DNA of 25,746 nucleotides from Candidatus Sigynarchaeum calidifontis (lineage in GTDB: Archaea; Asgardarchaeota; Lokiarchaeia; Sigyniarchaeales; Sigyniarchaeaceae), in the NCBI GenBank assembly GCA_030587475.2, contig JAUQYZ020000133.1, positions 1 to 25,746 on the forward strand, written 5' to 3'. Both the position numbers and the translations under genes were made by a program. Of this stretch, positions 18,305 through 21,364 are shown piece after piece; within the stretch, counting starts at the first letter, position 1; every line of letters starts with the position of its first letter. The notes under the pieces are model-generated. The model saw only the letters and a list, made by a program, of their open reading frames with translations. It had not been told where the DNA came from and did no database searches.

Positions 18305-19378
18305 TTACATGATGCGCCGGCATGAAGCCAAGGCGATCGAAATCGTGTGGTCTAGAATCTTCGACATGATATCCAAAAGAATTTGATATCCCGTGTATGG
18401 CGTCGTCGCGCTGAGGTCGTCGATCATGTTCTCTATATCACGCTTTTTCTGCTCGATGGATGGTGCTGTTTTGATCACGTAAACTGCATCCTTTTTTGTC
18501 TTGAAAAGAAAAGAATCCACGCCTTTCTTGAAAAGTTGGTAGACATTTTCCATGAAGACAACCACTTCTGCTATTACTTTCTTGTCCGGATCCTTTTTCT
18601 TGTTCGCCATGGCATTGAAAGCGAATTCCAGATCAGCCGCAACGCCAGAAATGTCGGTTATGTAGAACGCGGTGTCAACGGTATCCTGGGCGGAGAGTCC
18701 CATGCGTGCCAAGTTGGTTGGTACGAGCAAGCCTTTCCGCAGCTCCCGCAAGATACGAAGGAAATACTTGCGCACTTGCTTGTTGGAGATGCGCAGCGAG
18801 TCAATGCGCGAGGTATAGTCCCCCTCCCTGACGACATCGATCGTGTTCTGAAACAAGTCCACGGTCGTGTCTGCAATGATCTTGACCAGCACGTCCACAT
18901 TCGTCTCGTGGATGTTCATGATGTCCTGGATCTTGATTTTCGTTGACAATAGGGATGTTATCTCGAGGCCGAGCAGCGACTGGACGACCTCTTGCACCTT
19001 GAGAGTGAACTTGGTGGGGAACTTGTCCACGCCTTTACCCTCTTTTCTTTCTATGATGATGACGTCGTTCCCGTCCAGGTACTTGACAGTGATTTCCAGT
19101 TCGACCAGGTCCATGTCCTCGATGTCATCTGCGGAGAAGTATATAGTGGACTCGAAACGCGGCCGTTCGGTACCGAGCGTGAGGGGGCTTACCAACAGCG
19201 AGCCATCCTGGTTTTCCATGATGCAAACTTCGCTGTCCTTGTTTAGTTGAAATTTTTTGACCCAATTGCGAGGTAGGCTCATGATCAAGGTCTCGGAAGA
19301 GCCCCACTTGACCAGTTTCCTCGATTCAGATGCTTTTTTACCATCGCTATCGTCCCCGAAATCTTCCTTTTTCGACAT
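18305..19378 (-). CDS. Archaeal phosphate-uptake regulator type protein (AbrB-like N-terminal domain plus PhoU-like helical repeats)
   Basis: ESRKLVKWGSSETLIMSLPRNWVK...QDGSLLVSP (AbrB/SpoVT), YLDGNDVIII, LLGLEIT, and helical repeats ending ILDHTISIA. Confidence 0.88.
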   Translation of the reverse strand: MSKKEDFGDDSDGKKASESRKLVKWGSSETLIMSLPRNWVKKFQLNKDSEVCIMENQDGSLLVSPLTLGTERPRFESTIYFSADDIEDMDLVELEITVKYLDGNDVIIIERKEGKGVDKFPTKFTLKVQEVVQSLLGLEITSLLSTKIKIQDIMNIHETNVDVLVKIIADTTVDLFQNTIDVVREGDYTSRIDSLRISNKQVRKYFLRILRELRKGLLVPTNLARMGLSAQDTVDTAFYITDISGVAADLEFAFNAMANKKKDPDKKVIAEVVVFMENVYQLFKKGVDSFLFKTKKDAVYVIKTAPSIEQKKRDIENMIDDLSATTPYTGYQILLDIMSKILDHTISIALASCRRIM

Positions 19379-21042: not shown

Positions 21043-21052
21043 AAAAACAAAA
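21043..21052 (-). terminator. Oligo-T terminator of the tRNA gene
   Basis: TTTTGTTTTT immediately follows the encoded CCA on the minus strand. Confidence 0.6.
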
Positions 21053-21190
21053 TGGTAGGGAAGGCGGGCTTTTCACATGAACTCTAAACGAGTTAACATC
21101 ATTCGAACCCGCGGCCGCCCGGTCCCTTCGGCGCCTTTTTTCAACAAACTAGGCCAAACCGGGAATCATACCAGGCTAGACCACTTCCCT
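21053..21190 (-). tRNA. tRNA-Pro(UGG) with two introns (21155-21127 at 34/35; 21101-21070 at 59/60) and encoded CCA
   Basis: The minus strand reads AGGGAAG TG GTCT AGCCTGGTA TGAT T CCCGG TTT [29-nt intron] GGGA CCGGG CGGCC GCGGG TTCGAA [32-nt intron] G CCCGC CTTCCCT A CCA. It has a perfect 7-bp acceptor, 5-bp anticodon and 5-bp T stems, U8, G18G19, TTCGA and G37. The mature length is 77 nt. Confidence 0.93.
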
Positions 21191-21364
21191 TTTCATGAGA
21201 ATGCATTTTTGGTGAAAGATAGCAGAGAGTCCATTTCTTCATTGAAAGTTGGCAAGGTACGCCTTTTGTACATTCGATTATAAGATCGAATGAATACAAT
21301 GAAATAAAAGCATCGTCGCGAGGTTTCTGTAAGGGACGGTAGACAAGATTTCAAGCCGAAACAC

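Follow-up and report, generated by a model that had tools for sequence, protein, structure and literature searches.

The minus strand of a 25,746-nt stretch of DNA from Candidatus Sigynarchaeum calidifontis (the window, meaning here the whole stretch that was analysed) raises the question of whether an archaeal tRNA gene can be interrupted inside its anticodon triplet, and of how such an intron would be presented to the splicing machinery. An earlier note had proposed an intron between tRNA positions 34 and 35, held in a strict bulge-helix-bulge (BHB) motif that forces the anticodon arm to refold.

Two introns in a tRNA-Pro(UGG) gene

It is very likely that positions 21190..21053 of the minus strand encode a real, working tRNA-Pro(UGG) gene carrying two EndA-type introns. 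The 138-nt precursor (21053..21190; all parts of the gene given below lie on the minus strand) has an A1-U72 pair, A73 and an encoded CCA. Exon 1 (21156..21190) covers tRNA positions 1-34 and ends in U34, exon 2 (21102..21126) covers positions 35-59, and exon 3 (21053..21069), delimited by the ARAGORN call on the spliced sequence, covers positions 60-73 plus CCA. They are separated by two introns placed by the BHB scan, intron 1 of 29 nt at the U34/G35 junction (21127..21155, GGCCUAG...GCCGAA) and intron 2 of 32 nt in the T-loop at 59/60 (21070..21101). The junctions and cleavage sites are predicted from sequence. Once both introns are removed, a 77-nt mature sequence with CCA is left, which ARAGORN calls as a perfect tRNA-Pro(tgg) with loop UUUGGGA, A1-U72 and A73. 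Excision regains the class I cloverleaf with a 7-nt anticodon loop identical to that of intron-less orthologs, and the UGG anticodon, G37 and A73 identify the product as tRNA-Pro(UGG). The raw window gave zero ARAGORN or Rfam matches (gathering threshold and E<=1) because the two introns interrupt the gene.

The motif around intron 2 reads UUCG(AA/U)...UGAA(AA/G), the slashes marking the predicted cuts, and its outer helix is the 5-bp T stem. The inner pair adjacent to the bulge is absent, a G.G mismatch being followed by AUG/CAU. A 17-nt match to this intron lies on contig C127, outside any tRNA.

The bulge-helix-bulge motif within the anticodon

We scanned the 138-nt precursor exhaustively for 4-bp helices with opposed 3-nt bulges on either side, and the motif of intron 1 ranked first (central helix 4/4, outer helix 3, inner helix 4). 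The elements that had been listed before were all found in place. The outer helix joins U26 C27 C28 (21162..21164) to G36 G37 A38 (21123..21125) and is paired in 3/3 sequences; the central helix joins C29 G30 G31 U32 (21158..21161) to the intron bases GCCG (21129..21132); and the inner helix joins GCCU (21151..21154) to AGGC (21133..21136). Between these helices lie the 5' bulge U33 U34/G (21155..21157), with a predicted cut at 21156/21155, and the 3' bulge A A/G35 (21126..21128), with a predicted cut at 21127/21126. Opposed 3-nt bulges about a 4-bp CGGU/GCCG helix, the same in the same-genus ortholog L002, place the insert among archaeal BHB introns, and the 3-bp outer and 4-bp inner helices, both conserved, make the motif a strict hBHBh'.

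Among BHB-type registers, only excision at the 34/35 motif regenerates the GGUUUGGGACC loop in the window gene, and 34/35 is likewise the sole register giving UUUGGGA in L002. The scan of the precursor found no BHB for registers 35/36, 36/37 or 37/38. When the insert was shuffled, an equally strict and productive motif appeared in 19/5000 trials. A rival 4/4 motif, UGGC/GCCG, which would define a 24-nt intron, was dropped as it would leave a 12-nt loop. The spliced product of the window gene is by itself identical for 34/35, 35/36 and 36/37. No paralog of intron 1 was found in the host genome, and the other introns that ARAGORN places inside anticodons there (offsets +1 to +3) are without BHB support.

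Orthologs with the same intron site

Two further versions of the gene carry the 34/35 intron. L002, from the same-genus genome G001 and at the same locus as L022, reads CCCGGUUU/UGACGUCUCCUUGGAGAAGUCGCCGAA/GGGACCGGG; its intron is 27 nt long, the central helix and bulges are unchanged, and the inner helix is GAC/GUC. The third version, present on two metagenome contigs that hold the same gene (L027 and L028), has a 29-nt intron, AGCCAAG...CUGGCGCCAAG, with an inner helix GCCA/UGGC and a central helix of 3/4 pairs, its intron strand reading GCCA with one C.A mismatch. Judged by this mismatch in the predicted pairing, strictness of the motif is not universal. The third base of the 5' bulge is G, U or A over the three orthologs. 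Because the first intron base is U in L002 and A in L027, the 34/35 site is fixed by sequence alone in both, which removes the three-way ambiguity of the window gene.

Exon 1 is the same in all three versions and exon 2 has two differing positions, while the introns have changed far more (18/29 identity for intron 1 between the window gene and L027). In the alignment of the three versions 96.9% of the pair cells form, versus 22-53% in slid registers. Covariation among orthologs, which the earlier note had named as a check, is seen in two inner-helix pairs that change on both sides, but it is not statistically significant, since 97/500 shuffles reach the same level with only three distinct sequences available. 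The assignment of the intron to 34/35 by way of a strict hBHBh' nevertheless held: it is the sole productive register, the site is kept in two orthologs, and seven intron-less orthologs have the loop UUUGGGA with G37.

Other parts of the gene differ among its relatives. The 59/60 T-loop intron is kept in L027, where its counterpart has 3 inner pairs, and is missing from L002. The encoded CCA (21053-21055) occurs in the window gene and in L027/L028 and not in L002. The A1-U72 start (21190 / 21057) is common to the tRNA-Pro(UGG) genes of the family (window, L002, L027 and L037 of the genome G002), and G1-C72 is found instead in orthologs from the order's other families and in the host genome's Pro(CGG). 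Upstream of the window gene, the block CACCAAAAA (21206..21214, minus strand; -24..-16) and CUCAU at -9..-5 are possibly promoter elements; their spacing is the same in L027, and the pattern is absent in L002. The T-rich run immediately 3' of CCA (21043..21052, minus strand) is probably a transcription stop.

Distribution of insertion sites

Insertion sites were placed by a motif-free comparison over the collected tRNA-Pro orthologs. Seven species of the same order have no insertion and keep the loop UUUGGGA with G37. Three others (L004, L007 and L013) have an intron at 37/38 with a strict BHB, L015 and L016 (two loci shown) have one at 25/26, and one species (L010) has one in the variable region. 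A Heimdall genome and its metagenome relatives (L020, L023/L024) are interrupted at 33/34 within a strict BHB, and the same Heimdall genome and relatives (L021, L025, L026) also have an insertion of the 36/37 type, whose flanking helices are absent. Heimdallarchaeota MAG b1.sp2_bin.26 (L020, L021) and the sources of L023-L026 have two multiply interrupted tRNA-Pro(UGG) genes per genome, and the 36/37-type motif of the second Heimdall gene is GUUU/GAAC.

The sister genus G002, of the same family, and the same-order genome G005 have an intact UUUGGGA loop and an insertion in the D arm. A search of 400 Asgard genomes for the insertion pattern GGUUU...GGGACC returned only the host, G001 and the Heimdall genome. 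By the insertion sites predicted here, the 34/35 intron is confined to the host's own genus-level clade, and intron 1 was probably gained within that clade. That some close relatives have it and others do not agrees with reports that Asgard tRNA introns were gained repeatedly and in a lineage-specific manner (bioRxiv 10.64898/2026.10.13.758758; PMC11291895). An origin by sliding from a 37/38 intron was considered and found unsupported, as by eye there is no similarity to the introns of L004, L007 and L013.

Refolding of the anticodon arm

Bases C29-G31 have two alternative partners, the intron in the BHB and C39-G41 in the mature stem. Since the same bases are used in both structures, the BHB and the native stem cannot coexist, and the mutual exclusivity of the BHB with the CCCGG/CCGGG stem, which the earlier note had asserted, is correct and can be read directly off the sequence. 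The conformational switch derived from it stands as far as this incompatibility goes, but it is not peculiar to the window gene, being a consequence of the geometry of the motif. With a BHB at p/p+1, the positions of outer-helix partners sum to 2p-4, and native anticodon-stem pairs sum to 70; only p=37 is therefore in register, and all other introns of the anticodon arm need refolding. The 25/26 introns (L015/L016) and the 33/34 introns (L020/L023) likewise borrow exon bases. What is specific to proline is that G36-G37-A38 complement U26-C27-C28, giving a perfect outer helix made of exon bases only.

Energies were computed with ViennaRNA at 37 C, a model that leaves out tertiary contacts and modifications. 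For the isolated arm, the lowest free energy belongs to the native-stem fold (-16.7 kcal/mol in the window gene, -18.1 in L002 and -16.5 in L027); the BHB conformer lies about 5.4 kcal/mol above it, and in all three orthologs the native-stem fold buries the 5' splice site in a continuous helix. The order reverses for the full-length precursor, where the BHB-enforced fold (-52.2, -40.4 and -53.8 kcal/mol for the window gene, L002 and L027) beats the enforced cloverleaf (-44.3, -36.6 and -47.2 kcal/mol) by 4-8 kcal/mol in all three orthologs. This reversal arises because G9-G19, the 5' half of the D arm (21171..21182, minus strand), pair with C39-C48 (21113-21122), 10 pairs being possible. The 3' strand of the native anticodon stem, C39-G43 (21118..21122, minus strand), is partnerless in the BHB conformer and is paired with the D-loop in the full-length folds.

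The spliced tRNA, used as a control, shows the same preference for a rod over the cloverleaf (-38.8 vs -30.7), and of the 10 pairs of the G9-G19/C39-C48 helix, 8-10 are still present in intron-less orthologs. As the helix is also found in the spliced tRNA and in intron-less orthologs, it is a property of the exons with nothing intron-specific about it. We therefore rejected, as a demonstrated intron adaptation, the idea of a 'holder helix', the same complementarity being present in those two controls. The folding model shows only that the BHB conformer would be accessible, not that it is programmed. That G9-G19/C39-C48 may hold the C39-C48 strand off C27-G31, so that splicing would precede core folding, in what is possibly an undescribed type of archaeal intron (BHB at 34/35), is a reading that we regard as rather unlikely.

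Splicing model and alternative explanations

The host genome encodes both activities expected for BHB introns. The splicing endonuclease is represented by two EndA paralogs that each combine an N-terminal with a catalytic domain (PF02778, PF01974), one of 233 aa on contig C230 and the other the C178/C189 gene, and the ligase by an RtcB match of 569 bits. Asgard EndA has been reported as a broad-specificity (alpha-beta)2 type with an L1 loop (PMC5829648). In the model that we favour, U26-C28 would pair with G36-A38; these exon bases already match each other in a proline tRNA that has this stem, and the pairing would therefore come at no extra cost. C29-U32 would pair with GCCG close to the 3' end of the intron, and GCCU/AGGC would close the motif. 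The splicing endonuclease would then cut within each 3-nt bulge, between its second and third bases (UU/G and AA/G), RtcB would ligate U34 to G35, and the native anticodon stem (C29-G31/C39-G41) could form only once this joint was made. The 59/60 intron would be excised likewise, with the T stem as outer helix. This order of events, and the populating of the BHB conformer, are what the pairing pattern suggests.

The main competitor is that EndA cuts a relaxed motif, such as a bulge-helix-loop, without full refolding, or cuts in the equivalent register 35/36 or 36/37. The broad specificity reported for the Asgard enzyme would allow this, as would the central-helix mismatch tolerated in L027; for the isolated arm, the fold with the native stem is favoured by about 5.4 kcal/mol and also has the 3' splice site in a bulge, and in the window gene three registers lead to the same product. 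That same fold, however, puts the 5' splice site inside a helix in all three orthologs, and GCCG and the inner-helix complementarity are conserved, which would be needless under relaxed cutting. As to the other registers, 35/36 and 36/37 are without any 3/4 or 4/4 BHB, and the sequences of L002 and L027 permit 34/35 only. We thus hold relaxed or shifted cutting to be quite unlikely next to cleavage at 34/35 in the full motif.

A canonical intron at 37/38, with a loop UUUGGC/.../A and therefore C37, is suggested by the unspliced gene, which reads UU-UGG-C with an intron beginning GGC. The earlier note had warned of just this miscall; the warning is logically right as a conditional, but ARAGORN, given the sequence with the T-loop intron removed, called a 29-nt intron in an equivalent register with the correct G37, and makes no 37/38 call. 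In the 37/38 register, U32-G35 pair only 3/4 of the required bases and the inner helix is absent, so that there is no BHB. The corresponding stretch is UUUUGAC in L002 and UUUAGCC in L027, which exclude the canonical class, and all intron-less orthologs have G37; the 37/38 reading has next to no chance of being right. The insert is not a group I intron either, with 29 nt against a core of about 200 nt or more and no Rfam match (gathering threshold, E<=1).

There is also the question of whether the gene is needed at all. The window contig is C240 of a 4.99-Mb metagenome-assembled genome (89% complete, with a bin contamination of 5%), and the tRNA gene is flanked by genes for a zinc alcohol dehydrogenase and a PRTase-domain protein. 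A 357-aa ORF (18305-19378, minus strand) has a sub-threshold match to a MazE/AbrB-type antitoxin domain near its N terminus. ARAGORN called no further Pro(UGG) gene over the rest of the genome. A UGG anticodon arm lacking an intron, together with a tRNA body, did turn up in a motif search, where contig C212 ends. This contig belongs to the same bin, and at C212:11601-17719 it holds 19 intron-less tRNAs (per ARAGORN) in 6 kb, followed by the tRNA-Pro(UGG) that is cut by the contig end, in contrast with the intron-rich tRNA genes elsewhere in the genome. The array may represent a second tRNA set or a mobile element, or it may be contamination, and the window gene may not be the sole source of tRNA-Pro(UGG) in the bin.

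On this basis the window gene could be decaying or redundant, with an inefficiently spliced 34/35 insert, while the intron-less tRNA of C212, which has an intact UGG arm and tRNA body beside the 19 others, reads the CCA codons. We find this very improbable: the exons are identical or nearly so in three diverged orthologs whose introns diverge yet keep the BHB, and the spliced product forms a flawless cloverleaf. Among the orthologs collected, the one Pro(UGG) match recorded for the same-genus genome G001 is the intron-bearing gene. The membership of C212 in the same organism is itself uncertain, given the contamination of the bin. A functional gene spliced at 34/35 remains our preferred reading.

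Comparison with known systems

Non-canonical BHB introns are known from the multi-intron tRNA genes of Thermoproteales (PMC4090602, PMC4033280, PMC3218864) and, among the Asgard archaea, from Atabeyarchaeia and Freyarchaeia (PMC11291895; bioRxiv 10.64898/2026.10.13.758758). Intron 1 resembles these in being short, BHB-defined and off 37/38, in sharing its gene with a second intron (59/60), in making the gene escape standard finders, and in belonging to a lineage with two EndA paralogs. It is unlike those reviewed in lying inside the anticodon triplet. The reviews, in the parts available to us, give as non-canonical sites 3/4, 20/21, 22/23, 25/26, 29/30, 30/31, 45/46, 53/54, 56/57, 59/60 'etc.', and 34/35 is absent from these review lists, which are distinct from the primary catalogues. 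Non-canonical sites have been described as seemingly random (PMC3218864). Among the papers searched, we found none on an archaeal BHB intron at positions 34 and 35 or within the anticodon.

With the canonical 37/38 intron, which the same tRNA carries in the same-order L004, L007 and L013, intron 1 shares the motif geometry, the predicted enzymes (EndA and RtcB) and the loop. It differs in that the outer helix at 37/38 is the native stem, whereas that of the window gene lies three positions out of register per strand and its central helix takes three native-stem bases. The anticodon-arm sites 29/30 and 30/31, reported for introns and split tRNAs (PMC4090602), and the 25/26, 33/34 and 36/37 sites of the orthologs share with it the need for exon bases to leave their native partners; the window intron is set apart from them by its position and by its perfect 3-bp exon-only outer helix. 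The one other documented tRNA intron at 34/35 among the papers searched is the group I intron that interrupts tRNA-Leu(UAA) in bacteria and plastids, CUU/.../AAAA (bioRxiv 10.1101/2020.01.27.920355). It occupies the same site, but it splices itself as a ribozyme and is hundreds of nucleotides long, as opposed to 29 nt with a BHB.

The window intron does not reveal a new mechanism. It indicates that an archaeal splicing motif can be built even within the anticodon triplet, because the proline anticodon together with G37-A38 complements the 5' strand of the stem. Since neither ARAGORN nor Rfam detects the gene, the genomes of this clade would seem to lack tRNA-Pro(UGG), and the three natural variants are handy substrates for setting a broad-specificity EndA against competition from the native stem. 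Among known systems, intron 1 is confirmed as a real, conserved EndA-type intron of a known kind at a rare site, in a lineage known for heavily interrupted tRNA genes, and it adds a well-supported conserved case to those of the Asgard archaea.
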